Below, piece by piece: positions 5,309 to 36,294 of a stretch of 36,326 nt of DNA (the first letter of the stretch is position 1; each line of letters opens with the position of its first letter). The translations under genes and the position numbers were made by a program. This DNA comes from an uncultured Lentisphaerota bacterium. Lineage in GTDB: Bacteria; Verrucomicrobiota; Lentisphaeria; Oligosphaerales; CAJXKU01. Where the stretch lies: contig CAJXKU010000002.1 in the NCBI GenBank assembly GCA_913055945.1, forward strand, positions 1 through 36,326, read 5' to 3'. The notes beneath the pieces were generated by a model that saw nothing but the letters and a program-made list of their open reading frames with translations, had not been told where the DNA came from and did not search any database.

Positions 5309-6411
5309 CTCCGAAGCGGACCGCGAAGCGGTCCAGGTGGGTAGCCACGGGTGTGAACCCGTGGGCATGGGGATACCCCAACCACATCTGCGCCCCAAAG
5401 CGGGCGCGGGTGAGAATCCGGGGACATTCTCCTATGCGTACAATGTTTCTTTAACCACGAAGGCCACGAAGAACACAAAGATGCTAAGAAAATTGAGCCT
5501 CAAGAAGGCCAGCATTTTCAGTCAACGGCGAATCACGTGAATATAAGTGGTTAGTTGGACATTGATGTTATTCGCGTCTACTCGCGTGATTAGCGGTTTT
5601 CTTATATTCTTTCTTTACATTCTCCGCGCCTCTGCACGATAACACAAATGACATATGGATATTTATGCTCGCACGGAGCCATGAAGAGCACGGGAAGTGA
5701 TAGCTTACCGGTGGCATAGGAGGAGCGCCAGTAGAATTGCTGACGCAAAGCAAAACTTCGTGACGCTGGCTTTGCGTTCCTTGTTGCTCTTTGTGGTTCA
5801 CTCATATTTACGTTAATCACCTAATTCTCGATATAATGTTATGTTGTAATTGGTGATTTTTAAAGCCAAGCAACGGCCATTTTCGGGCTGATTAAATCAC
5901 ATTTTTCTTGGATAACTAAGACTTTCTATTAACAAAAAAGGAAAGGATGAAATTATGCGCACGGCACGAATCAGGAATTGATCGGGAGCGGTGTTATTCT
6001 CATGTTGTAAACCGGGTGTCAGGCATGCCGGGGTATCTCCCCTTCGAGAAACACATTTACGAAGAAAATGTGTTTTTTCGGTCAGGAGCGCATGCGGAAG
6101 AAAAGATTTGAACAAGACGAGAGCTCCGGTCTTGTCTCCTTCTGCCAACTGCGCAAAGCCGAGCTTTGAAAGCGGTTTATCCACGTAAAATGCAATCATC
6201 CAGACCCCTTTTTCCCGTCCGGATTGTGTCGCCTTCCCGCTTAAAACAGGCTACGAAAGACCGGAATACGGCTTTCATTCCGCTCTCATTTCTGATCGCT
6301 GGCTTCATTTTCTAAAAATCTTCCCCTTAAAATTAGAGACGCTTTCTCAGCGAAATTGGTACACCGATGCTATGCTATAGCTCGGTTGTCTCCAGGTTTC
6401 ATATCTGCCCT

Positions 6412-24377: not shown

Positions 24378-24454
24378 GGGGCTGTAGCTCAGTTGGCTAG
24401 AGCGGCACGTTCGCAACGTGCAAGTCAGGGGTTCGAGTCCCCTCAGCTCCACCA
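24378..24454 (+). tRNA. tRNA-Ala (anticodon CGC), CCA encoded
   Basis: Hand-folded cloverleaf: acceptor GGGGCTG/CAGCTCC with the G3:U70 alanine identity pair; D arm GCTC/GAGC; anticodon stem GCACG/CGTGC with loop TTCGCAA; T arm AGGGG-TTCGAGT-CCCCT; 3' ACCA. Confidence 0.95.
24407..24454 (+). repeat. attL core (3' 48 nt of the functional tRNA-Ala)
   Basis: Identical to 35932-35979. Confidence 0.9.
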
Positions 24455-24536
24455 CCTTTTCGCCTTCCCCGCCCTTGATTAACCGTCTTTTCTGTCCTTC
24501 ACTGTCTCTGTCAGTCTACCATATATAAGGCTCTTG

Positions 24537-24727: not shown

Positions 24728-24761
24728 AAAAAAAGACCGAAACGCTATTAACGCTCCGGCC
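24728..24761 (-). terminator. intrinsic terminator closing the island's leftward transcription
   Basis: The minus strand reads GGCCGGAGCG-ttaata-GCGTTTCGGTC followed by TTTTTTTATTTAT. The 10-bp stem needs three G:U pairs, so it only folds well in the minus-strand transcript. Confidence 0.65.
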
Positions 24762-24787
24762 TGTGATCCTGTATTTTATTTTAGCCT

Positions 24788-24925
24788 TCACTTAAACAGT
24801 TTCTTGAACAGCTTCCCCGTCGTTTTACCTGCTGCCCTGCGTCCAACTCTCCGACCGATCTTGCCTTTGCCGACCGCATTCAGGTCGCCTAACAGCTTTG
24901 CCAGCGTGTAAAGGAAACGTCGCAT
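24788..24925 (-). CDS. 45-aa highly basic peptide (hypothetical; resembles small basic ORFs I have seen in phage genomes)
   Basis: My translation is MRRFLYTLAKLLGDLNAVGKGKIGRRVGRRAAGKTTGKLFKKLFK*. An AAGGA lies ~9 nt upstream of the ATG, and the terminator follows directly. It is below the ORF-track length cutoff. Confidence 0.4.
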   Translation of the reverse strand: MRRFLYTLAKLLGDLNAVGKGKIGRRVGRRAAGKTTGKLFKKLFK

Positions 24926-24957: not shown

Positions 24958-25284
24958 CTATGCGTGATGCCACCACATCAGAAATCGGACGATGATAAAC
25001 CAAATTAGTCCCACGACAATTCCGAGTGTACCAAAAGCAGAAATTCCGGGAGAAGGGTCGTCTCCTGAAAAACCAAACATCACTGCCATAATACTCCCTA
25101 TAATGAGTAGGCAGGAAAGCAATTGCTGTAACTTATAGCGTTTAGATCTCTGTTCAACTGTTTGTATTTTTCCTCCGTGCGCTTGGGTACTTCCCCCGCC
25201 CGTTAACGGGTAAGCACAATTAGGGCAAGTGTCAGCATTGTCAGAAACCTGTTTGTTGCATTCTGGGCAAGTAGTAAGTGCCAT
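24958..25284 (-). CDS. zinc-ribbon membrane protein (2 predicted TM helices)
   Basis: The ATG at 25284 is preceded by gaaaggagacgacaac. The N-terminal ribbon is CPECNKQV...CPNCAYPL. Two hydrophobic helices follow (LLSCLLIIGSIMAVMFGF; FGTLGIVVGLIWFIIVRFLMWW). Confidence 0.6.
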   Translation of the reverse strand: MALTTCPECNKQVSDNADTCPNCAYPLTGGGSTQAHGGKIQTVEQRSKRYKLQQLLSCLLIIGSIMAVMFGFSGDDPSPGISAFGTLGIVVGLIWFIIVRFLMWWHHA

Positions 25285-25384: not shown

Positions 25385-25669
25385 CTATATATCAAGACCG
25401 CTGCTGCCTTCATCCTCGGCGTTAGCTACCGACTCGAACTGGCGGGCCATTTCGCGAGCGGCCTGGACGGATCCCCGCTCCCGGACTTCCCCCATGAGCG
25501 CCGCGTAAATCACGCTCCGCGCCCGTAACTGCCCGCGTCGGTATGCTTCCATTGCCTCTTTGTCGTTCTCGATGGTACCGGGTTCCAGTTCACATAACCG
25601 CGCTACATCACCCACACTGAACGGCATGGCGCTGTATTTTTCAACGTGTTGTAATGTCTCCGAATCCAT
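25385..25669 (-). CDS. 94-aa HTH-like protein; possible small-terminase-like / packaging-specificity factor
   Basis: The ATG lies 1 nt after the stop of the upstream gene. FSVGDVARLCELEPGTIEN (HTH-like), then EAYRRGQLRARSVIYAALMGEVRERGSVQAAREMARQF, resembles the A.erGra.a...l.......G....a pattern of some small terminase/HTH proteins. This is pattern-level only. Confidence 0.3.
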   Translation of the reverse strand: MDSETLQHVEKYSAMPFSVGDVARLCELEPGTIENDKEAMEAYRRGQLRARSVIYAALMGEVRERGSVQAAREMARQFESVANAEDEGSSGLDI

Positions 25670-25670
25670 A

Positions 25671-26417
25671 TTACACCCCTGCGATTGGGACGTTGACCTT
25701 CTGGGCGTTCAGCAAGTCCCACATCTTCTGAGGCGGCAACCTGTATTTAATAACCTGCGTGCCCCACTTGCGCTGTATTGCCTCGCAGTACGTCTGTTCT
25801 TTCGCCATAGTGCGCTCGCTCACGATCCCGCCCGCGTTATCACCGTGGTCTGTGAAGTAACAGTATTTGTTGAATCGTAGCAACCTTTTGTACCGGCATA
25901 GAACCTGAAGAGAAAAGTCGTAATCATCCTTCGTTCCCATACGTTCATCATATAACAAGTTGTGCTCTAAGTGCCCCTGAAACGGGCCCAGAACCACACT
26001 CGTAAGACTGAAAGGCTTATACTGCTGGTAATTACGACCGTCCTCATTACAATTCACGCCCCAGAATACGCAGCCCCACTCATACGCCAGGTTGAACCCC
26101 TGTTTTATCACGTCGAGGGCAGTCTCCGGGTCGAGGCAAATTTGTTGCTTGCCGCCCTCCGAATGTCCCAGTGCAGAAACATCATCATCTAACATCAACA
26201 ATGGTCGCTCGATATTACGCAGGATCCAGTTCCTTTTACGTGCAATGTTGCGGTCTGATTCGTCGGGAATCACGATCAGACGCTTAGCGCCGACCGTCTT
26301 TGTGTATTGATCCCGCTGGCTCTCAGGAATTACATATTTGGCCGCAGAGAAATAATCTTTGCCCTTCAATCCCTGGGGGCGGTTATAACTCGGTATGCAG
26401 ATATTCAAACCCCGCAT
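25671..26417 (-). CDS. GT-A-like glycosyltransferase, size and motifs reminiscent of the phage TET/JBP-associated (TAGT/GREB1-like) family
   Basis: The ATG at 26417 has GGAGGG 8 nt upstream and overlaps the end of the previous gene by 13 nt. NICIPSYNRP near the N-terminus and LLMLDDDV (DxD-type) fit GT-A logic. 248 aa. Not verified by search. Confidence 0.5.
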   Translation of the reverse strand: MRGLNICIPSYNRPQGLKGKDYFSAAKYVIPESQRDQYTKTVGAKRLIVIPDESDRNIARKRNWILRNIERPLLMLDDDVSALGHSEGGKQQICLDPETALDVIKQGFNLAYEWGCVFWGVNCNEDGRNYQQYKPFSLTSVVLGPFQGHLEHNLLYDERMGTKDDYDFSLQVLCRYKRLLRFNKYCYFTDHGDNAGGIVSERTMAKEQTYCEAIQRKWGTQVIKYRLPPQKMWDLLNAQKVNVPIAGV

Positions 26418-26896
26418 AGTATCAACCCTCCGACCGCTTTGCAGTCCTGTAATGCCCGCAGGCACCGTGTCATTGTGAGTAATGTCTCTCCGAAGTCGTC
26501 AAACAGCAATACCCGCTGCTCTGTCACGTCCGCTGCCAGTTCTGTCTTGTAATCCTGTAACTTTGCACCCCGCCAGCAACGTGTTTTTCTATTCGCCGGC
26601 GCAAAGACTGTCTCAAAGTCGATGTTCAGCCAGCGTGCAACTCGTGTCCCGATCCACTCAGCGAACGGAACGCCGTCTGCACTTGCCGGTGGAACCGTCA
26701 CCATATCAAAGCGCCCGCCTAAAAAATGCTGTATCACCCGACGTGGCGCCTCGATAAGGTCGGCGTCTGATTCTTGTTTACGCTTTAATCGCATCAGTTC
26801 ACGCTTAGCTTTTATATTGCGTCCTGAATACACCGCTCGAAACCGTATGCCGTCGCGAAATTGGCTATAGAAAGGATGTCCTACGTCAACTATCAC
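26405..26896 (-). CDS. ComF-like phosphoribosyltransferase-fold protein with a degenerate PRPP-binding loop
   Basis: MVTVPPAS... / ...RVLLFDDFGETLLTMTRCLRAL aligns by eye to the ComF/PRTase layout (ivpVP ... vlLvDDVxTTGxT), but the TTG phosphate-binding residues are replaced. The likely GTG start at 26896 is preceded by GGAGAGG and overlaps the ParB-like stop. The ORF-track TTG start is at 26929. Confidence 0.45.
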   Translation of the reverse strand: MIVDVGHPFYSQFRDGIRFRAVYSGRNIKAKRELMRLKRKQESDADLIEAPRRVIQHFLGGRFDMVTVPPASADGVPFAEWIGTRVARWLNIDFETVFAPANRKTRCWRGAKLQDYKTELAADVTEQRVLLFDDFGETLLTMTRCLRALQDCKAVGGLILCGV

Positions 26897-27506
26897 CTTG
26901 TAGCCTCTCCAATACCTTTGAACCGTCAATGACCCGACCCGTGCCCGTAGGCTGGTTTTTCCGGGGAATAAGGTCTTTCACTTGCTTCAGTCCGAGCTTG
27001 TCCATTGCCACCTGCCAGTCCATCGGGTTGCTGAAGTACAGAACCACATAGTTATGCTCGAGCAACAACTCTTCGCTGAATTCGACCTCTGCCTGTTCTT
27101 CCGGCTCGGCTGCCTGCTGGCTTTCCGCAAAGATGGCGTTGAGTTCGTCTTGCGGAAACCCCCATCCTTCCAGCTCCTGCTTCTCGAAAAACTCGGCGAG
27201 TGCCTTGTCGTCGAATTCGCCAGTGTTACGATTGAGCCGGATGTTTAACTCCCGTTCCCTGTCGCGGTCAAGCTCCACCTCGACGCAAGGTATCGTATCG
27301 TGTCCGAGTTCCTGCCATATCCGTAGACGCTGGTGACCACCGATTACTATATTTCGGCGATCTTCGTGTGTGTTCACGATGATGGGATCCACACAACCAA
27401 ACCTCTGCATTGAATCCCGCAGAGCTTTTTCGTCCTCTTTGCCCAACGTGCGCGGGTTGTACTCGCTTTCGACCAATTCTTTGATACTCCGTTCTTTGAT
27501 CTGCAT
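26886..27506 (-). CDS. ParB/Srx N-terminal-domain protein (of the type usually fused to phage DNA methyltransferases), no partner enzymatic domain
   Basis: IKELVESEYNPRTL...ALRDSMQRFGCVDPIIVN...IVIGGHQRLRIWQELGHDTIP matches ParB-N (ParBc) motifs. I chose the ATG at 27506. The acidic/helical C-terminal half has no recognisable catalytic motif. Confidence 0.7.
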   Translation of the reverse strand: MQIKERSIKELVESEYNPRTLGKEDEKALRDSMQRFGCVDPIIVNTHEDRRNIVIGGHQRLRIWQELGHDTIPCVEVELDRDRERELNIRLNRNTGEFDDKALAEFFEKQELEGWGFPQDELNAIFAESQQAAEPEEQAEVEFSEELLLEHNYVVLYFSNPMDWQVAMDKLGLKQVKDLIPRKNQPTGTGRVIDGSKVLERLQGDS

Positions 27507-27554
27507 ACATACCCCCAATGAAAGGGGCGCCCCGAAGAGCGCCCCGGTTTGTGT

Positions 27555-28174: not shown

Positions 28175-29116
28175 TTATGCCTCCGTATACAGTTTGTTGA
28201 GTCGCGTACTGCGTGCCCTTTTGCATTGCCCGGAACACGTCAACTGCCCTTTTTCGCGGGACACCGCCGCTGAACACTCTGAACATTCTGCGGAGAACAT
28301 CTGGTTTCTGAACCGCCAATAGTGGTCACGCACCCAATCAACTGCATCGGGCTCCCAGCCGCAACATGGAACCCCGAGCGATATTTCGTGCGTTTGCGTA
28401 TGCTTGATCCGCTGCCGCTCTGACCGCTTGGCTTTGCCGTAAACCTGCACGCATTCCTTGATCTCCGCATTAGACGGCTCCGGGACGTCCATCATGTCGG
28501 GCACTGCGTCCTTATCTTCGGCAATCGCACGGCCTTGCTCGGTCAAGGCATAGTACGTGTTACCCATTGCGTCACCAGCTACCTGCACCCACCCGCGCGC
28601 TGCTACCGACGTCATATCGAAGATGGTGTTGAACAGAATTGTTTCATCCCGTGTTCTGCGTGCTTTAGACGAGAAACCCCACTCCGGGACACCCGCAACT
28701 CCCCAAAAAGGAAGCCAGCGCTTGTCCTGAAACTCGATGCAGATCGGCGTCTCGGACTCGTAGGCCGCCATGTCTTCGAGATACATGCACAGGCAATCGA
28801 CTGGCCCCTGCTGGAGGAACATTTCGCAAGCCTGAAAGCCCTGTTCACTGAACCGAACCGACTGCACAGACCTGTCCGCGCCAGTGGTTTGGACGAGCTG
28901 CTTATCCAGCAACGCTCGTAACGCCCGATGCCGCTTTTGGCGCTCGTTTGCGTCCCCGCCACTCGAAGCAACCGTGATTCCACCTCCATTTGAGTATTGC
29001 ACCCTCGCAGCTTGCCTTTTACACTCGAAGTCCCTGCTGCCATCCGGCTGGGGTGGCTCATATACCGCATCCAACCTACCTTTTAACTCGATCAGAAGTT
29101 GTCTGGTATTGTTCAT
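28175..29116 (-). CDS. 313-aa hypothetical protein with a C-terminal Cys cluster
   Basis: Long ORF with an ATG start and gacaggagc upstream. C-terminal CSECSAAVSREKGQLTCSGQC. No family recognised. Confidence 0.6.
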   Translation of the reverse strand: MNNTRQLLIELKGRLDAVYEPPQPDGSRDFECKRQAARVQYSNGGGITVASSGGDANERQKRHRALRALLDKQLVQTTGADRSVQSVRFSEQGFQACEMFLQQGPVDCLCMYLEDMAAYESETPICIEFQDKRWLPFWGVAGVPEWGFSSKARRTRDETILFNTIFDMTSVAARGWVQVAGDAMGNTYYALTEQGRAIAEDKDAVPDMMDVPEPSNAEIKECVQVYGKAKRSERQRIKHTQTHEISLGVPCCGWEPDAVDWVRDHYWRFRNQMFSAECSECSAAVSREKGQLTCSGQCKRARSTRLNKLYTEA

Positions 29117-29327: not shown

Positions 29328-29879
29328 TCATTCACTCACGCTCGCCACCTGCAACTTCTTAGCCTGCAGTAAACTACGCGCATACTCCAGTGCTTTCGGG
29401 TCGTTCATGCGGCGTTCGCCTGCATCGCGCAAAGATTCCGAAGCGAGATTCGCGTTTTTGACACGCTCGGCATCCTGTGCCACTACTTGCGCGTGCCCTT
29501 TTTCCAGACCGTCATTGCACAGCGATTTTACCGTTTCGTTATACGCCTTTTCGCGCTCTTGCCGCAACCGTTTGCCCTCCGCAGAGCGATCACGATACAA
29601 CAATTCGTGCAACTCCGGCAACATCGTCCTGGCTTCGACTTCTGAAGCCAAAGCACGCAACTCAGCATCCTGCACCGCCTGCCCAGCTTTCCGAATGTCT
29701 GCCGGGTCCACCATCTCGACGATGCTGTCGCGCGCTTCTTCCACTTCCTGCTCGGCATTCGCAACGTCTTTGACGTACTCATTGAACATTTTCAGCTTCT
29801 CTCGGGACTCCTGAGACATCCATCCTTGCCGCGCAATCTGTTTCAGTTCTGCTTCTGCGTTCGCGAGTTGAATTGCCAT
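29328..29879 (-). CDS. 183-aa coiled-coil hypothetical protein
   Basis: ATG with gacaggagatagaca upstream. Highly charged helical sequence rich in E/A/R/K/Q. No family recognised. Confidence 0.6.
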   Translation of the reverse strand: MAIQLANAEAELKQIARQGWMSQESREKLKMFNEYVKDVANAEQEVEEARDSIVEMVDPADIRKAGQAVQDAELRALASEVEARTMLPELHELLYRDRSAEGKRLRQEREKAYNETVKSLCNDGLEKGHAQVVAQDAERVKNANLASESLRDAGERRMNDPKALEYARSLLQAKKLQVASVSE

Positions 29880-30053: not shown

Positions 30054-30509
30054 TCACACCTCCAACTTTGCTTTGAATTCTTGACACTGCCGGAAGAATT
30101 GCCGTAGAATTTGCAAGGTTGCTGTCGCTGCATGTTTCGTATCCGTCGCCCAAACAAACGGCACAGAATACCGAATCTGCCACGAAGAAACCGATGCTAT
30201 TAAGCACTGGGGCTTCAGTTGGCTTCTATACCGCCCCTGAACCGCGTCCTCGAAAGTCGCTTCGACTACAACCGCCCGGCATCGGTACGCCTGAAGACGA
30301 TGCAGTTCCGATCTGAACCGCTGCCGGTTGCTGTTCGTACAACATGAAACCAAGTCGGGCAGGCTCTTGCGCTCGACGGCGCATAATTCCTCGAGACCGC
30401 TCAGCGAATAATCGCCTGCACCCAATGTCCCGACCTGAACGCTGACCCCAACAGGAAATTGAAGAGGATCCTGTTCACGCGAGTCTTGAATTATTGCTGG
30501 CAACTCCAT
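30054..30509 (-). CDS. ERCC4 (XPF/Mus81/Hef-like) nuclease-domain protein
   Basis: IIQDSREQDP...GDYSL...AVERKSLPDLVSC matches the ERCC4 D.RE / GDY / ERK.x.DL signature. The start overlaps the primase stop (TGATG). Confidence 0.7.
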   Translation of the reverse strand: MELPAIIQDSREQDPLQFPVGVSVQVGTLGAGDYSLSGLEELCAVERKSLPDLVSCCTNSNRQRFRSELHRLQAYRCRAVVVEATFEDAVQGRYRSQLKPQCLIASVSSWQIRYSVPFVWATDTKHAATATLQILRQFFRQCQEFKAKLEV

Positions 30510-31660
30510 CAGTTCAGCCCCTCTGCTCTCAATGCTTCAGCGTCGCTCATACCGCCGTCCACTGTCCGTATTGCCAGACGTTCCAACTGTTCAACCGAAA
30601 AGCGCTCTTCCCATTCCTCCGGGAACGGCTGTATCGTGTTTTGCGTCTTTGTACGCTCACTAATCCCCAGACCTGTGCAGACCCATCGTCTGACCACGCC
30701 CTGCATGTCGCCGCAATCCTTCCCGACCGGCAACCACCGCTGCGTATTGTTCAACCGTACCTGCCACCAACCCGCCGCCTTCATTCCTGCGTCGTCTCTG
30801 TCGAAGGAAAGCAGAACCAACGGAGAAGCGGACAATCGATAAACCCACTTTTGAACCCGTGAACCAGTGCTTGCCCCCGTGGCGACCGGCGTTACCAAGT
30901 CCTCGGCCGCCTGTTCAATGAGAATGGCGTCGAGTTCGCCTTCAACCAGCACCGCCGGTTTGTCTGTACCCAACGTATCAGCGTTGAATAAGCCATTCCT
31001 GAAGCCACGCGGCCCCATGTACTTGTTACCGTTCCCCGGCTCCGGGCGCCTAACGTTCAACCGCCAGACCGTGCCGTCGATCCACCAAGGAATTACGAGT
31101 CCCGCCGGGAGAAAGACATCTTTTGCGTTTTCGTTTGTAGGCAGCCCCCAGTCTTCAGGCTTGTAATACTGATCCCGTGCGTTCCAACCGAGCCCCCACC
31201 GTTGTGCAGTGTCTTGTGTTATTCCGCGGGAGTGTAGGTATTCGCGCCCGGCTTTGCCCGAATTGTCCCACAAACGGTTTTTCGCGCTTATTGCGACTGC
31301 TTCAGCTTTCGCCGCCCACGTCTCCGTAGGCTTCTCAGATTGTTTGAGAGGCGCCCTCTTTGAACGCTGCAATGGCATATTTGCGCTCTGGGGCACGTCA
31401 CCGCCGCTTAACCGCTCGCAGGCTTCCTGAAAGGACACCCCCTCATATTCTTGTATGAAAGCGATGGCGTCACCACTCCAACCGCACCCCAAACAGTGGC
31501 ATAGCTTCGCGTTTCCCCGTACAATTCCGAACGACGGGTTGCGATCCTTATGAAACGGGCAGTGCCAATGTCCTGACCGTGCAGGCTTGCCCAGCTTGCG
31601 GATAAGTACGCTTTCAAGGCTGTGCTTCTCTAACAAACTTTCTGTATCTATCGTTGTCAT
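30509..31660 (-). CDS. DnaG-like primase (CHC2 zinc finger + Toprim)
   Basis: HCPFHKDRNPSFGIV...CLGCGWSGDAIAF is a CHC2 finger, and VLVEGELDAILIEQ / SFDRDDAG are Toprim acidic motifs. I chose the ATG at 31660, preceded by GGAGG. The ORF-track extension to 31777 is translated iterons (KWFTWFTWFT). Confidence 0.8.
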   Translation of the reverse strand: MTTIDTESLLEKHSLESVLIRKLGKPARSGHWHCPFHKDRNPSFGIVRGNAKLCHCLGCGWSGDAIAFIQEYEGVSFQEACERLSGGDVPQSANMPLQRSKRAPLKQSEKPTETWAAKAEAVAISAKNRLWDNSGKAGREYLHSRGITQDTAQRWGLGWNARDQYYKPEDWGLPTNENAKDVFLPAGLVIPWWIDGTVWRLNVRRPEPGNGNKYMGPRGFRNGLFNADTLGTDKPAVLVEGELDAILIEQAAEDLVTPVATGASTGSRVQKWVYRLSASPLVLLSFDRDDAGMKAAGWWQVRLNNTQRWLPVGKDCGDMQGVVRRWVCTGLGISERTKTQNTIQPFPEEWEERFSVEQLERLAIRTVDGGMSDAEALRAEGLN

Positions 31661-31676
31661 ATAAACCTCCGAATTA

Positions 31677-31783
31677 GTGAACCAAGTGAACCAAGTGAAC
31701 CATTTACCTTTTTTATGTTTGATAATGTTTCTATGGGAAAAAAACAGAAAGAGGGTCACTTCATTCACTTCATTCACTGTGAA
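31677..31783. other. candidate replication origin: inverted iteron sets flanking a 52-nt AT-rich spacer
   Basis: gtgaaccaa gtgaaccaa gtgaaccat (31677-31703); then ttaccttttttatgtttgataatgtttctatgggaaaaaaacagaaagaggg; then tcacttcat tcacttcat tcactgtga (31756-31782). The GTGAA core therefore occurs 3x on each strand, ending in the palindrome ttcactgtgaa (31773-31783). Confidence 0.6.
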
Positions 31784-33422
31784 TGAGAGTCAACCCCCTG
31801 TAAACCTTTTTCCCGCCCGAACCGCGACTACTCTCGAACCCTCTCTCTTTAACCGCGAGTCCGAAGTTACGCTGGTTTAACACTCCGAAGCCTCCATGCT
31901 CTGCCCAGCTTTTGTAGGCTTGGTAAAGTTCGCTACTTGATACTGACAACTCCCTTGACTGCTCGCAGCACTCTTCCAGAAAAATCCCTACTACGTCTTG
32001 CTCGTTTCGGTACTCATTCGTAGCTCTTTCCACCGCGTTAGGCATTCCAAGCCCCTTGTCCTGCCATTCGCGGCAACCGTCAACCGCCCAGCGCAGAACG
32101 CCGGGCAATTCCTGCGTGAGCTTGTACGCAAGGTTCGGGTCGCGTTCTGAATTCTCAAACCGTGCCGTAAACGGAACCAACCTCACCCGTCGCCAGATAC
32201 CTTCATCAGTCCCGTTTATCTGGGGCTTGTGGTTACAGGCGAGCCATAACTTGAACTCCGGGTTGAACTCGAAGCTGTTCTGGTGGAGGAACCGCGCTGT
32301 AATAGGTTCGCCGCCCGTCGCGTCCTTAACAAAGGATTCGTCTAAACGGTGCCCCTTTGCCGTCTCTGAAGTCGTAGCAAAACGGGCGCCCCTTAACCGT
32401 GCGCGGTCTTCAGGGATCCTGCCCGTGTCGCGAGCGGTAAACGCTTCTATGTTTGTATGCAGTGCCAAGGGACCCAACGCTGCCCGCAAAGTATTCAGAA
32501 ACGTGGACTTGCCGTTTGCCCCGATCCCATACAGGATGAAGAACACCTGCTCGGATATGTCACCCGTGAGGCTATAACCGACTGCTCTATGAATAAAATC
32601 GATTAACTCCGCGTCTCCCTTAAATACCTCATTCAGGAATTGCTCCCACCGCGGGCATGTTGCCTGGGGGTCATATTTCAAAGGCAGGACGTGTGTTATA
32701 AAATCATCACGGCGATGTTGCCGCAGTTCTCCTGTGCGCAAGTCAATCGTGCCGTTTTTGCAGTTCACAAGCCACGGGCTGCGGTCGAACTTGTCCACCG
32801 TGAGTGTCATACCGGGCTCCGCGGCTGCAAGGTTCAACATTGCCCCGCGTCGCCGCTCTTCCAACGACTTATTAGCCCACTTGAGCAGTTGCTCTTGTCG
32901 TTTCTGTTCTTCCTCAGACTGAGCGCTCAGTTCAAAACACTCCGCTCGAATGGCGTCTGATACCTGCGAGGTCAACCCCAGCACATAATTTTCATTGTCC
33001 GGCTGCCAGTGCGTTCCCGCCCACCGATACCAGCACTTTGCCTCAGTTACGAAACGCAGGTCACGCCCTGCCATATCAACAAGGCGCCGGGCGTTGCCCG
33101 TGTCCGTTTGCGTATATTCACGCTGGGGCTGTTCTGGACTACTTCCGCTTAACGCTGCGAGTCCTTTCGCGTCGTTCTGTAAAGCATTCCGCATAAAGTC
33201 GCGTCGCTGTTCTATGTCGTTTATCCGAAGTGCCTCCGTTGCCAAGTCCGCATATTCATCCGAAACGCCCTCGCTGGTATTGGCGCCGTCGAATATCTGA
33301 GCCAAAACGTTGGCATTCTCTCTGTCACCCGCTATATTATTATTAACGGTTGTCGCCGTCGCCTCTTCATTTACCCCGTTGGCATTCCCCAGCGGGGTTT
33401 TTTCTTGTGTGTCCCTACTCAT
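31770..33422 (-). CDS. P4/D5-family SF3 helicase (phage/plasmid primase C-terminal-domain type)
   Basis: GNARRLVDMAGRDLRFV...WYRWAGTHWQPD; PWLVNCKNGTIDLRTGELRQHRRDDFIT; CPRWEQFLNEVF; and Walker A ILYGIGANGKSTF. These are typical of the P4-alpha/D5 helicase module. The ATG at 33422 has GGGAGG upstream and overlaps the previous gene by 8 nt. Confidence 0.85.
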   Translation of the reverse strand: MSRDTQEKTPLGNANGVNEEATATTVNNNIAGDRENANVLAQIFDGANTSEGVSDEYADLATEALRINDIEQRRDFMRNALQNDAKGLAALSGSSPEQPQREYTQTDTGNARRLVDMAGRDLRFVTEAKCWYRWAGTHWQPDNENYVLGLTSQVSDAIRAECFELSAQSEEEQKRQEQLLKWANKSLEERRRGAMLNLAAAEPGMTLTVDKFDRSPWLVNCKNGTIDLRTGELRQHRRDDFITHVLPLKYDPQATCPRWEQFLNEVFKGDAELIDFIHRAVGYSLTGDISEQVFFILYGIGANGKSTFLNTLRAALGPLALHTNIEAFTARDTGRIPEDRARLRGARFATTSETAKGHRLDESFVKDATGGEPITARFLHQNSFEFNPEFKLWLACNHKPQINGTDEGIWRRVRLVPFTARFENSERDPNLAYKLTQELPGVLRWAVDGCREWQDKGLGMPNAVERATNEYRNEQDVVGIFLEECCEQSRELSVSSSELYQAYKSWAEHGGFGVLNQRNFGLAVKERGFESSRGSGGKKVYRGLTLIHSE

Positions 33423-33741
33423 AACTAACACCTCCCTTCATCACCGTCTCCACGTCTTCCGAGTGGAAGCGCAGTGACTTTCGACTGCTGGTCAGGTAAA
33501 CCGCTCGCAGCGTGCCCGCGTTCCGCAGACGATGCACAGTTTTTGTGCTACAGTTCAACTTCCACGCCACCTGCTGCACAGTGAGAAGGTGCGTTTCTTT
33601 TGGCGAGGTGTCGTTCTCTCCATCCTGCGATTTTCTTGCGAGGCGCACCAATTCGTTAAACTGATCCGCGGGAATAATCCCGCTCTCTACTGCGGGCTTG
33701 CAGAATTGTCTTACGTTCTGAATAGTGCTCTTCGTAATCAT
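33415..33741 (-). CDS. excisionase-family / MerR-like HTH DNA-binding protein
   Basis: LLTVQQVAWKLNCSTKTVHRLRNAGTLRAV is a Xis/AlpA-type HTH. It has an ATGA start/stop overlap with the upstream XRE gene. Confidence 0.55.
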   Translation of the reverse strand: MITKSTIQNVRQFCKPAVESGIIPADQFNELVRLARKSQDGENDTSPKETHLLTVQQVAWKLNCSTKTVHRLRNAGTLRAVYLTSSRKSLRFHSEDVETVMKGGVSYE

Positions 33742-33971
33742 ACTGCACCTCCAGACCCCTCTTCAGGGAAAATGTCTTGAGGTGAGCAGTGGAGTGCTTG
33801 AGCGAGTAGGTAAGACGTAACACGTTGGGCAGTACGTTTGCCGTTCAAGATGTCCGAAACCGTGGTCACGGCGAGCCCCGTCTGTCGGGCAAGATCGGCG
33901 CCCGTCACGCCCTGTCGTTTCATGGTAGTGGCAAGTTTGACGTTCGGTGTGGGGTTGTTGCGCTGTGTCAT
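33738..33971 (-). CDS. XRE/Cro-cI-type HTH transcriptional regulator
   Basis: MKRQGVTGADLARQTGLAVTTVSDILNGKR...LAQAL is a classic HTH_3 pattern. The ATG at 33971 has AAGGAGG 5 nt upstream. Confidence 0.75.
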   Translation of the reverse strand: MTQRNNPTPNVKLATTMKRQGVTGADLARQTGLAVTTVSDILNGKRTAQRVTSYLLAQALHCSPQDIFPEEGSGGAV

Positions 33972-33992
33972 TTTAGCCTCCTTCCCCCGGCC

Positions 33993-34036
33993 AAAAAAAA
34001 GCGACGAGCCGAGGTTGTTTCCTCGAACTCGCCGCC
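33993..34036 (-). terminator. strong intrinsic terminator immediately upstream of the XRE regulator RBS
   Basis: The minus strand reads GCGGCGAGttCGAGG-aaacaa-CCTCGgCTCGTCGC (about 13 bp with a small internal loop) followed by TTTTTTTT. The T-tract ends 21 nt before the ATG at 33971. Confidence 0.65.
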
Positions 34037-34106
34037 ACAGTCGCAACGTGAGTTAGGTTTTAATTACCGTGAATTACTGCCTGAAATCAGACAATGATCC
34101 CGGTTG

Positions 34107-34484: not shown

Positions 34485-35792
34485 TTACGTGTTCTGATCT
34501 TGAGCATGTTTGAGCATATCTCTCACTTCTCCAATGGGGAGACTGTCTACCAACTCGTGCAATCGTTCGCGTTCAGGATCTTTTGTCTGCGGACTTTCCC
34601 CCGGCCCGGATGTCAACTTCGGCAACTGGTCGAAGCCAGTAATAAGCGTGTCACCCAGTCCCGCCCGAATGTAGTACTGATCCGTAGTCTGAATCGAGTC
34701 TCCAAGCATTCGTGCCAGCCATACGCTCTTGCATCCTGCCATTGCCGCCTGAGTGGCGAATGTTGCCCGCAGGCTGTGGGCGCCGTATGCTGACCTTTGG
34801 ACTTTGCGTTGTCCGTGCGTTTCGTTGTGCTTTTTGCCGTCGCCAGCTACCTGCTGCACAAGAGTTACGATCCGTTTATGAATCGCATCCGCGTTTCGTT
34901 CGTACTGCTCGACAAGCCCCGGAAAGAGGTAATCTTGATCGTTACCCGCCATGCTTTCCAATGTAATAATTTCGTTATATAACGGCTGTAAAAGCGGCAC
35001 TTCAGCTTCCTTGCCCTTGCTTCCTGTTTTGCGTGGCGTGTAAGTCAACGCCCCGCGATTAAGGTCGATGTTATGCCAGCACATTGTAACCGCATCAATG
35101 AGTCGCGTGCCCGCGTACAGGCACATCTTTACCACAATCCGGCATTCGTTCGGGCAGGGCAGGTCGACGTGTGGTTCATCAAGTTTCTGCAGTAATGCCG
35201 TCACCTGCTGGCAGGATAATGGGAGACGCTTTTGTTTCGTTTCTGTTTTGCGCAGGCTGGGGTCGTGCCACTTGTTTTCGGCGATCCCGTATTTATTCGC
35301 CAGCGCTTTCGTGATATGTCCCAAGCTGTTTTTCTTGTAATGATACGTGTTCGCGCTTATTCCGCTCTCCCAAAGGTGCTGACAATACTCTGCGGCTATA
35401 TCCCCGGATACATCCGTGAACGATGTAATCACCGGGTAATTACTCTGTAGCCATTCGATAAACTCATTCAGGTGCCTTTTGTAATTGCCGAGCGTGCCCT
35501 GACTTGCCGAGGGGTTTGTCTGCATGAATGCCGTCCATACATCCCCCAAGGGCAGGTCTTTTTGTTGCATGAGCTTTTTAGCTTTCGCAGCTTCATGGAG
35601 GACGTCTGCCTTGTCTTTCGCCGCCACCCCGCGCTGAAGATCCTCTGCCTGTTTTTGCGCTTCAGCTTTATTACGAGTTCTGAGGCTTTTCTTGTGGCGC
35701 TTGCCGTTCGCATCAGACCACCAGAAATAAAACATCCCGTTCGCTGCCTTGCTGATAGTGCCGCTTCCCCGTGAACGCCGTTTCCTACTCAT
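34485..35792 (-). CDS. int: tyrosine recombinase / phage-type integrase
   Basis: The ATG at 35792 is preceded by AAGGAG. The N-terminal arm-binding-type region is GTISKAANGMFYFWWSDANGKRHKKSL. Catalytic motifs are GTRLIDA (Arg I), AHSLRATFAT (H-x-x-R) and LGDSIQTTDQYY (Tyr). It lies adjacent to attR. Confidence 0.9.
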   Translation of the reverse strand: MSRKRRSRGSGTISKAANGMFYFWWSDANGKRHKKSLRTRNKAEAQKQAEDLQRGVAAKDKADVLHEAAKAKKLMQQKDLPLGDVWTAFMQTNPSASQGTLGNYKRHLNEFIEWLQSNYPVITSFTDVSGDIAAEYCQHLWESGISANTYHYKKNSLGHITKALANKYGIAENKWHDPSLRKTETKQKRLPLSCQQVTALLQKLDEPHVDLPCPNECRIVVKMCLYAGTRLIDAVTMCWHNIDLNRGALTYTPRKTGSKGKEAEVPLLQPLYNEIITLESMAGNDQDYLFPGLVEQYERNADAIHKRIVTLVQQVAGDGKKHNETHGQRKVQRSAYGAHSLRATFATQAAMAGCKSVWLARMLGDSIQTTDQYYIRAGLGDTLITGFDQLPKLTSGPGESPQTKDPERERLHELVDSLPIGEVRDMLKHAQDQNT

Positions 35793-35849
35793 GGTTGCAA
35801 CTCCTTTATTTTGTCGTTTTGAGCTACTGGCTGTCCTTCTCAGTACAGT

Positions 35850-35892
35850 ACTATAAAGCATAAAATAAAGAAATGCAACCAATAAGTAACCA
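35850..35892 (-). promoter_or_regulatory. candidate int promoter (TTGCAT-17-TATAGT) with an adjacent TAAGTAACCA arm-type repeat
   Basis: On the minus strand the -35 is TTGCAT (35873-35878), the spacer is 17 nt, and the -10 is TATAGT (35850-35855). The 10-mer taagtaacca at 35883-35892 sits just upstream of the -35. Confidence 0.4.
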
Positions 35893-35931: not shown

Positions 35932-35979
35932 ACGTTCGCAACGTGCAAGTCAGGGGTTCGAGTCCCCTCAGCTCCACCA
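35932..35979 (+). repeat. attR core (orphan 3' tRNA-Ala fragment)
   Basis: Identical to 24407-24454. It has no 5' tRNA half upstream (preceded by ...gtgtctgctat). Confidence 0.9.
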
Positions 35980-36294
35980 TGATTTTTCCTTCCCAGCCCT
36001 TGATTAACCGTCTTTATTGTCCTTCATGTTTTTGTCCAGTCAGACTGGATAGATAAAACGCTAACCAATCCGATACTGAAGCGTCCTTACAGGATGCAAT
36101 TGTTGGCGGCGTTCTTCCCCCCCAGGCTGGCGCCTGGGCTTCCGGCTCGCAGAGCCTACAGCTCGGAGAGGCTACGGTGAATCGGCCCCTTCGGGGCCTT
36201 ATACAATCTTCAATCATTGAATAGCGAATTGCTGGATGCTGAAGCATGAACGCCGACAAGTCGAAGATCTGAACTGAGCTCTATTACATCCTTA

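Follow-up and report, generated by a model that had tools for sequence, protein, structure and literature searches.

What does a predicted phage-type glycosyltransferase act upon when it is encoded next to a ParB-like protein and no enzyme that would make its acceptor is found with it? This question is raised by four closely packed minus-strand genes in a 36,326-nt stretch of DNA from an uncultured Lentisphaerota bacterium (contig CAJXKU010000002.1 of assembly GCA_913055945.1, positions 1 to 36,326), which we refer to as the window. In the order of transcription the genes encode a ParB-like protein of 206 aa, a 163-aa protein related to phosphoribosyltransferases (PRTases), a 248-aa predicted glycosyltransferase of the TAGT (TET-associated glycosyltransferase) family, and a 94-aa helix-turn-helix (HTH)-like protein, and they lie on an integrated, satellite-like island. 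The PRTase-like open reading frame begins within the last 11 nt of the ParB-like gene, its GTG start preceded at a distance of 7 nt by GGAGAGG (26910-26904); the glycosyltransferase ATG is preceded by GGAGGG and its reading frame shares 13 nt with the 3' end of the PRTase-like one, and a single base separates the glycosyltransferase stop codon from the ATG of the 94-aa gene. Direct reading of the minus strand reproduced all of the coordinates and motifs given for these genes in a first-pass annotation, which had been made from the letters of the DNA. We report that the functional core of this cassette is a two-gene, translationally coupled ParB-TAGT module whose pairing is obligate. By analogy with ParB-dependent dioxygenases, we judge the chances slightly better than even that the cassette is a copy, carried by a satellite, of a module widespread in phages that serves ParB-assisted, post-replicative DNA glycosylation linked to packaging.

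The ParB-TAGT pair is the conserved unit

The ParB-like protein consists of an N-terminal nucleoside triphosphate (NTP)-binding domain, a helical linker, and a C-terminal domain of ~65 aa (EVEFSEELLLEHNYVVLYFSNPMDWQVA...GTGRVI). The protein matches PF02195 (38.2 bits against a cut-off of 26.3, E 1.6e-9) and carries the motifs NPR (residues 17-19) and GGHQR (residues 56-60), a GxxR motif being present in at least 55 of 73 family members. Its N-domain belongs to the type found in fusions with phage DNA methylases, as had been claimed at first reading: phrog_498 (DNA methyltransferase) matches residues 1-146 at 2e-34, and the PADLOC MTase_II model matches residues 1-142 at 1e-20. The N-domain box motifs of canonical ParABS systems are thus present, and the two other hallmarks, a central parS-binding HTH and a ParA partner, were not found; no HTH DNA-binding family matched the 206-aa protein, for which the NCBIfam models parB_part and noc scored far below their cut-offs, and Pfam and PHROG searches of the island proteins returned no ParA. 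The C-terminal domain is kept across 75 distinct ParBs, with the consensus EVEFSxELLLEHNY[IV]VLYFDN..DW.VA...GIGRV in the relatives. Relatives of the ParB also occur in four other arrangements, as a fusion to an N6_N4 methylase, as the neighbor of a C5 methylase, as a fusion to a PRTase domain, and at the head of a ParB-TAGT-Tet_JBP-terS operon, and all four adjoin terS/terL. Gene 34 of Streptococcus phage Javan291 (L064 14807-15397) is a lone 196-aa ParB_N protein that bears the GenBank label 'DNA modification methylase'; since it has no methylase domain, the label was likely carried over from ParB-methylase fusions.

The 248-aa protein matches PF20691 (50.3 bits against a cut-off of 27.5, E 3.7e-13) and phrog_842, the beta-glucosyl-HMC-alpha-glucosyltransferase family (7e-20), and PF20691 is also the annotation of all its homologues at 50-81% identity, of which there are at least 314. 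Its motifs include IPSYNR (residues 8-13) and DDD (residues 77-79). In an alignment of 64 sequences with a mean identity of ~60%, no substitution is seen at R13, D77-D79, H149, H152, D165, or D167, Y166 is kept in at least 90%, and the DDD triplet is kept in 90 of 91 glycosyltransferases. The invariance of R13, DDD, and D165/D167 argues for selection for catalysis. The AlphaFold2 model (pLDDT 93.4, pTM 0.90) matches phage TAGT-domain proteins in Foldseek searches of BFVD with TM scores of 0.7-0.84, one of these being a beta-glucosyl-HMC-alpha-glucosyltransferase; its matches in the PDB (TarS, WrtF, TarP, and K4CP) are at the generic GT-A level, with TM ~0.5 and 12-15% identity. From the family match and the model, we confidently assign the protein to the TAGT family, with a predicted GT-A fold and all of its R/DDD/DYD active site in place. 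The initial GT-A, TAGT-like reading is thereby upheld, and the searches gave no placement in a polysaccharide or teichoic-acid family that would have spoken against it, TarS and TarP remaining at TM ~0.5.

The two genes were found together whichever of them served as the seed. Among loci collected with the glycosyltransferase, this ParB lies directly upstream on the same strand in 62 of 63, the exception having its glycosyltransferase at a contig edge. A search of IMG/VR with the ParB C-terminal domain matched 219 contigs, of which 80 were kept, yielding 70 new loci; TAGT lies directly downstream in 69 of these, and the exception is a contig end. When the two sets are pooled, 74 of the 75 distinct ParBs that carry this C-terminal domain have TAGT just downstream, the one exception again being at a contig end. 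Fifty-eight of the 74 pairs are adjacent, 10 contain two glycosyltransferase-family matches (mostly tandem paralogues), five have a PRTase-like insert, and one has a radical-SAM/SPASM insert. The glycosyltransferase start lies between -35 and +18 nt of the ParB stop in 74 of 92 distinct ParB sequences, and a 4-nt overlap is found at 43 of the 92 junctions. Gene order in other genomes does not, therefore, bear out the four-gene cassette first proposed: the conserved unit is ParB plus TAGT, a sister satellite (L001) does without the PRTase-like gene, and the 94-aa gene is confined to sister satellites.

The space between ParB and TAGT holds other genes as well. In some loci it is occupied by a radical-SAM/SPASM protein (L022 4409-5338) or a DUF5131 protein (L029 7291-8004), either of which could be an alternative acceptor-making enzyme, and in some loci by a second TAGT. 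Genes for sugar-nucleotide enzymes adjoin the pair in some phages, among them GLF (UDP-galactopyranose mutase), NeuB, DegT, an epimerase, and a UDP-glucose-dehydrogenase-like protein (for example L048 7449-8576 and L065 5028-5810). These neighbors suggest that the sugars are varied, and together with the tandem TAGT genes they are as expected for a glycan-type hypermodification.

A search of isolate and metagenome-assembled genomes gave two loci, so that the host range is known mostly from viral contigs and from three cultured-phage groups. In Streptococcus phage Javan291, in Clostridium phage CS266P2, and in many IMG/VR contigs, terS/terL follow immediately downstream of the module. In Microbacterium phage Paschalis (Quhwahvirus), a member of cluster EC (PMC7302621), the module is found toward the right end of the genome, next to a second glycosyltransferase and a UDP-glucose-dehydrogenase-like gene, and terS is at the left end. 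The terminase neighborhood recalls the alternative, raised at the outset, of a plain packaging role, in which ParB would act with terS/terL on the recognition or cutting of concatemers and the glycosyltransferase and PRTase-like proteins would be structural or inactive. The positional half of that idea stands, and the degenerate phosphoribosyl pyrophosphate (PRPP) loop of the PRTase-related protein, described below, would also fit it. The half that dispenses with chemistry fares poorly, given the conservation of the glycosyltransferase active site and a satellite that carries no terL of its own, and we consider packaging without chemistry very improbable.

A predicted DNA glycosylation and its acceptor

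The case for DNA glycosylation begins with the company that ParB keeps, since elsewhere the only partners to which this module is joined, by fusion or by linkage, are DNA-modifying enzymes, which argues that the ParB-TAGT pair is DNA-modifying too. The closest experimental parallel is a phage T-dioxygenase (5mYOX) that needs ParB only on double-stranded DNA, the ParB in question consisting of an NTP-binding and a C-terminal domain with no DNA-binding domain (O'Toole et al., PNAS 2026, PMC13229309). Of the features of such an activator, the architecture and the adjacency to a modifying enzyme (TAGT, 74 of 75) are found in the window clade; a cognate 5mYOX partner was not found. We used an IMG/VR ParB-TAGT-Tet_JBP operon for this comparison, in place of the characterised ParB176, and the window ParB is 35% identical to its ParB over the N-domain (E 1e-15). 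By analogy, the ParB-type protein would load onto double-stranded DNA or open it and would activate or position the TAGT glycosyltransferase, which would move a sugar from a presumed nucleoside diphosphate-sugar donor to its presumed substrate, DNA. Glycosylation would occur after replication, around the time of packaging, and would leave the packaged genome protected in the next host. The PRTase-like protein may serve as an accessory third subunit, either binding nucleotide or DNA or contributing a second modifying activity.

Several observations weigh against this proposal. Pfam and PHROG searches recovered no TET or hydroxymethylase on the island, as the first-pass annotation had noted, and the complete genomes of Javan291 and Paschalis contain no Tet_JBP, thymidylate-synthase-like, or methylase candidates. 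Additionally, no Tet_JBP homologue was recovered from ~130 loci of this clade in a 3-seed jackhmmer search, and none appears among the top 25 Pfam families in each list for 180 neighboring proteins, lists that contain methylases, radical-SAM/DUF5131 proteins, and sugar-nucleotide enzymes. The genomic association of TAGT with an acceptor-supplying enzyme, be it a TET/JBP oxygenase or a hydroxymethylase of pyrimidines, usual for this family, is therefore not seen in the window clade. Because this result comes from a 3-seed search and from top-25 lists, the absence of an oxygenase from the clade is likely rather than proven. Furthermore, we know of no precedent for a GT-A enzyme that glycosylates canonical DNA. 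We infer the contact between ParB and the glycosyltransferase from gene order alone. Finally, the TAGT family is not restricted to DNA, as the TAGT-domain protein GREB1 O-GlcNAcylates a protein (PMC7968844).

The example of GREB1 leads to a reading in which the glycosyltransferase acts on something other than DNA, be it a protein (of the virion or the packaging machinery, for example) or a polymer of the cell envelope, and ParB is merely a packaging or regulatory partner that shares the operon. The failure to find an acceptor-making DNA enzyme would be explained, and the best matches among solved structures are the teichoic-acid enzymes TarS and TarP, the latter prophage-encoded. Sugar-nucleotide genes and extra glycosyltransferases near the module in some phages would fit as well, such genes being likewise seen with virion glycosylation in actinophages. 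The likeness to TarS and TarP is, however, generic when set against that to phage TAGT proteins, and a near-absolute, translationally coupled pairing with a ParB module otherwise tied to DNA-modifying enzymes is hard to reconcile with a mere sharing of the operon. We hold a non-DNA target to be improbable.

If DNA is the substrate, then the acceptor would be either a position in canonical DNA (base or backbone) or a base produced in trans, since no source of hydroxymethyl-pyrimidine was found. The PRTase-like protein is not the likely maker of the acceptor, because an 81%-identical glycosyltransferase occurs beside ParB in a satellite without the PRTase-like gene. A TET-independent transfer of sugar directly to a canonical base or to the backbone, or, in the three-gene form, to a phosphoribosyl group installed by the PRTase-like enzyme, is in our estimate unlikely. 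If true, direct glycosylation or phosphoribosyl-glycosylation would be an undescribed DNA chemistry, common in temperate phages and borrowed by satellites.

Alternatively, the chemistry could be classical and the acceptor supplied in trans, the glycosyltransferase acting on 5-hydroxymethyl-uracil or -cytosine made by a helper phage or by an unlinked gene. The satellite would then bring the last step and a ParB helper, and would decorate its own DNA or re-decorate that of the helper. Satellites replicate in the nucleotide pool of their helper phage, which would make such a supply available. Enzymes of this kind that act on DNA include the beta-glucosyl-HMC-alpha-glucosyltransferases of T2/T6 and the JGT-like phage GT-A enzymes associated with 5mYOX, and all characterised TAGT-type DNA enzymes use a hydroxymethyl-pyrimidine or its glucoside (PMC13216743; bioRxiv 10.1101/2023.12.21.572611). 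Related operons do encode an oxygenase: in IMG/VR we found the order ParB (195 aa)-TAGT (246 aa)-Tet_JBP (299 aa)-terS at L143 749-3306, L144 4324-6881, and L147 5013-7563. Their glycosyltransferase is, however, only 21% identical to that of the window, which places the two enzymes in distinct clades, no Tet_JBP homologue was recovered from the ~130 loci of the window clade, and the complete Javan291 and Paschalis genomes yielded no enzyme of the required kind. A trans-supplied acceptor therefore strikes us as rather unlikely.

The PRTase-related insert and the satellite-like island

The 163-aa protein has no Pfam or PHROG match of its own, PF00156 being absent at E<=1, and belongs to a very small family, with 14 proteins found among 5.8 billion and 11 representatives at E<1e-30 among 1.84 billion. 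PF00156 is matched by three members of this family and by 34 of 53 remote relatives. Two of the 53 carry a ComF-type double zinc ribbon that is absent from the window protein, and ParB_N is fused to three. The 34 PDB profile matches are weak (E 0.018-1.6), but every one is to a type I PRTase, with the alignment on the PRPP loop. The loop itself reads DDFGETLLTM (DDFGETLLT being residues 133-141) against a canonical DD-h-x-T-[TS]-G-x-T, so that the two aspartates and two threonines are kept and the glycine is lost; the glycine is missing from 11 of the 14 family members, and T-G-x-T is kept in the other three. An AlphaFold2 model built from the 14-sequence alignment reached a pLDDT of 47 and was unusable for a fold search. 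These comparisons agree with the original description of the protein as PRTase-related with a degenerate PRPP loop, and we retain it as a prediction from sequence.

All 10 loci with readable neighbors (the window, L003/L004, L005, L008, L020, L152, L153, L154, and L155) have the PRTase-like gene in the position between ParB and TAGT, usually with its start overlapping the ParB stop. The expectation that the three families would co-occur elsewhere thus held. The closest sister satellite, L001, whose glycosyltransferase is the nearest relative of that of the window (81% identical), has no PRTase-like gene and shows the order ParB-TAGT-94aa-...-45aa. The gene is a rare, optional insert and, where present, a faithful third member of the module. 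Among the wider relatives, five single proteins of ~320-335 aa (P0150, P0155, P0160, P0174, and P0175) combine a PRTase domain with a ParB N-domain like that of the methylase fusions; their loop is the canonical DDVATSGxT in all but P0155, which reads DDVATSVVT with the glycine replaced. The existence of these fusions indicates a ParB-PRTase link that is independent of the glycosyltransferase, and this link, in its inserted and fused forms, points to a second, unexplored DNA-directed activity.

The features of the island are collected in Table 1. The starts of its two attachment repeats are 11,525 nt apart, defining an integrated element of 11.5 kb. Pfam and PHROG searches of the island proteins found no virion genes, and the characteristics of a satellite, namely a small integrated element with attachment repeats, an integrase, regulators, its own replication genes, and no virion genes, are all present. 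The sister satellite has counterparts of both family-less genes upstream of ParB, and the C-terminal end of the 313-aa product is Cys-rich and resembles a zinc ribbon. In the window, as in L152 (2590-3099) and L154 (748-1197), ParB is preceded at a distance of a few genes by a gene for an ERCC4-type nuclease; because the nuclease accompanies the ParB-PRTase-like-TAGT order in these loci too, this satellite segment may derive from a phage that carried the trio.

Table 1. Features of the island and its cassette, from the left to the right attachment repeat (positions in the window; HTH, helix-turn-helix)
Feature	Position	Strand	Remarks
Left attachment repeat	24407..24501	+	95-nt direct repeat; 3' half of tRNA-Ala(CGC) (gene 24378-24454) plus 47 nt
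Intrinsic-terminator-like hairpin	24734..24762	-	Strong; T7 tail; probable end of the operon
45-aa peptide gene	24788..24925	-	Highly basic (MRRFLYTLAKLLGDLNAVGKGK...); end of operon; ~89% identical to the 45-aa reading frame of sister satellite L001 (9837-9974)
108-aa zinc-ribbon protein gene	24958..25284	-	From an internal ATG; downstream of the 94-aa gene; C-terminal hydrophobic segment; PF13240 Zn_Ribbon_1 1.5e-6, phrog_6586 2.5e-9
94-aa HTH-like protein gene	25385..25669	-	ATG 25669
Predicted TAGT-family (PF20691) GT-A glycosyltransferase gene, 248 aa	25671..26417	-	ATG 26417, TAA 25673-25671
Predicted PRTase-related gene, 163 aa	26405..26896	-	GTG 26896, TGA 26407-26405
ParB-like gene, 206 aa	26886..27506	-	ATG 27506, TGA 26888-26886; minus strand read directly
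GC-rich hairpin	27524..27545	-	Very stable; 9 bp, 8 G-C pairs; short T-poor tail; ends 18 nt before the ParB ATG
313-aa protein gene	28175..29116	-	No Pfam or PHROG family; 37% identity, E 2e-70, to the 312-aa protein of L001 (6439-7377)
183-aa protein gene	29328-29879	-	No Pfam or PHROG family; 26% identical to its L001 counterpart (5695-6240)
ERCC4 nuclease gene	30054-30509		Island backbone
DnaG-like primase gene	30509-31777		Island backbone
D5-type primase-helicase gene	31770-33431		Island backbone
HTH regulator genes, two	33415-34046		Island backbone
Tyrosine integrase gene	34485..35882	-	Pfam/PHROG profile searches
Right attachment repeat	35932..36026	+	92% identical to the left repeat, first 48 nt identical; integrase adjoins

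The hairpin ahead of ParB may be an attenuator, a terminator, a processing site, or an RNA-stability element, and in any of these capacities may divide the cassette from the genes upstream. At the other end of the operon, the 45-aa peptide is better kept between the two satellites than are most of their larger genes. Homologues of the 94-aa protein were found exclusively in the sister satellites L001 and L002. It appears HTH-like by eye, its match to phrog_868 being at 0.04 only. Its identity as a small terminase was unsupported, as hhalign gave at most 20% probability against four terS profiles and a jackhmmer comparison with the genes downstream of the glycosyltransferase in phages recovered the sister satellite only. 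The protein may be a regulator or be small-terminase-like.

Satellites often carry defense cargo, and the first-pass annotation had also suggested a role in defense or in a nucleotide signal. The cassette would then counter other phages or interfere with the helper, by way of a nucleotide signal or by acting on invading or helper DNA. PRTase-fold proteins do occur in nucleotide-based conflict systems (PMC7824862). PADLOC-DB 2.0, in contrast, recognizes nothing in the cassette but the ParB part of the MTase_II model, and the module is mostly found inside phage genomes beside their own terminase genes rather than in defense islands. The suggestion thus finds no support here, and of the readings considered we regard it as the most improbable.

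Relation to known systems

A combination of ParB, PRTase, and glycosyltransferase was not found described in the literature that we compared, which did not include Iyer et al. 2013, the paper that reportedly defined TAGT. Likewise, we found no literature description of the obligate, oxygenase-free ParB-TAGT pair, of its C-terminal domain, of the PRTase-like insert and the ParB-PRTase fusions, or of carriage by a satellite. The module as a kind is nevertheless not undescribed, as had first been supposed. ParB-assisted phage DNA-modifying enzymes have been demonstrated experimentally (PMC13229309), the occurrence of ParB and terminase genes beside phage GT-A genes has been noted in passing (bioRxiv 10.1101/2023.12.21.572611), and a hypothesis linking ParB to phage DNA-modifying enzymes is on record, at least as cited in PMC8256090. 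We therefore regard the ParB-TAGT module of this clade as a new form of established TAGT and ParB-linked modification, of which a prior mention in Iyer et al. 2013 is possible.

Phage DNA hypermodification shapes the outcomes of restriction, CRISPR, and type IV defense and supplies enzymes for epigenetic tools. A discrete, widespread pair of ParB and glycosyltransferase would add a third role to those known for the ParB module, after methylase fusions and the activation of dioxygenases. Of 753 TAGT-encoding phage genomes, 288 have neither an alpha- nor a beta-GT (PMC13216743), and the pair, having been found without an oxygenase, bears on the puzzle of the solitary TAGT, namely the role of the many TAGT genes that have no hydroxymethylase with them. 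Cultured carriers are at hand in Microbacterium cluster EC phages, Streptococcus phage Javan291, and Clostridium phage CS266P2, and a satellite with its own modification module is of interest for the biology of satellite, helper, and host.

Comparison with five known systems sets the boundaries of the module. Satellites of the phage-inducible chromosomal island (PICI) and P4 kinds share with the island its size, its integration into a tRNA gene with direct repeats, an integrase, HTH regulators, a D5-type primase-helicase, and the lack of virion genes; unlike them, the island has a DNA-modification-type module where packaging-redirection or defense cargo is usual. ComF/ComFC and other type I PRTases (PF00156) have in common with the 163-aa protein a VPPxS segment and the PRPP-loop layout hydrophobic-DD-x-x-x-T-x-x-T, and its remote relatives include matches to PF00156 (34 of 53) and two proteins with the double zinc ribbon. 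The window protein differs in falling under the Pfam thresholds, in its replaced loop glycine, in having no N-terminal zinc ribbon, and in the position of its family between ParB and TAGT in every readable locus.

The GT-A (TAGT) enzymes of T2/T6 and those associated with 5mYOX or ThyS are alike in Pfam family, GT-A fold, and R...DDD...DY motifs. They use hydroxymethyl-cytosine or its glucoside provided by a phage hydroxymethylase or TET enzyme, whereas no such enzyme was found in the window clade, and they have no reported obligate pairing with ParB. The phage ParB-N6/N4 DNA methyltransferase fusions (phrog_498; PADLOC MTase_II; bioRxiv 10.1101/2025.10.10.680097) share the ParB N-domain, the helical linker, and a site directly upstream of terS/terL; in the window the partner is instead a separate, translationally coupled glycosyltransferase, and the ~65-aa C-terminal domain takes the place of the methylase. 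The ParB-dependent 5mYOX systems (PMC13229309) resemble the module in their short ParB, made up of an NTP-binding and a C-terminal domain without a DNA-binding domain, in the position of the ParB gene directly upstream of TAGT and near terS, and in an N-domain that is 35% identical. They are distinguished from it by their Tet_JBP enzyme, by a glycosyltransferase only 21% identical, and by a C-terminal domain that, by eye, differs beyond a short YFDN-like motif, and the window ParB would assist a glycosyltransferase or the product of an inserted gene rather than an oxygenase.

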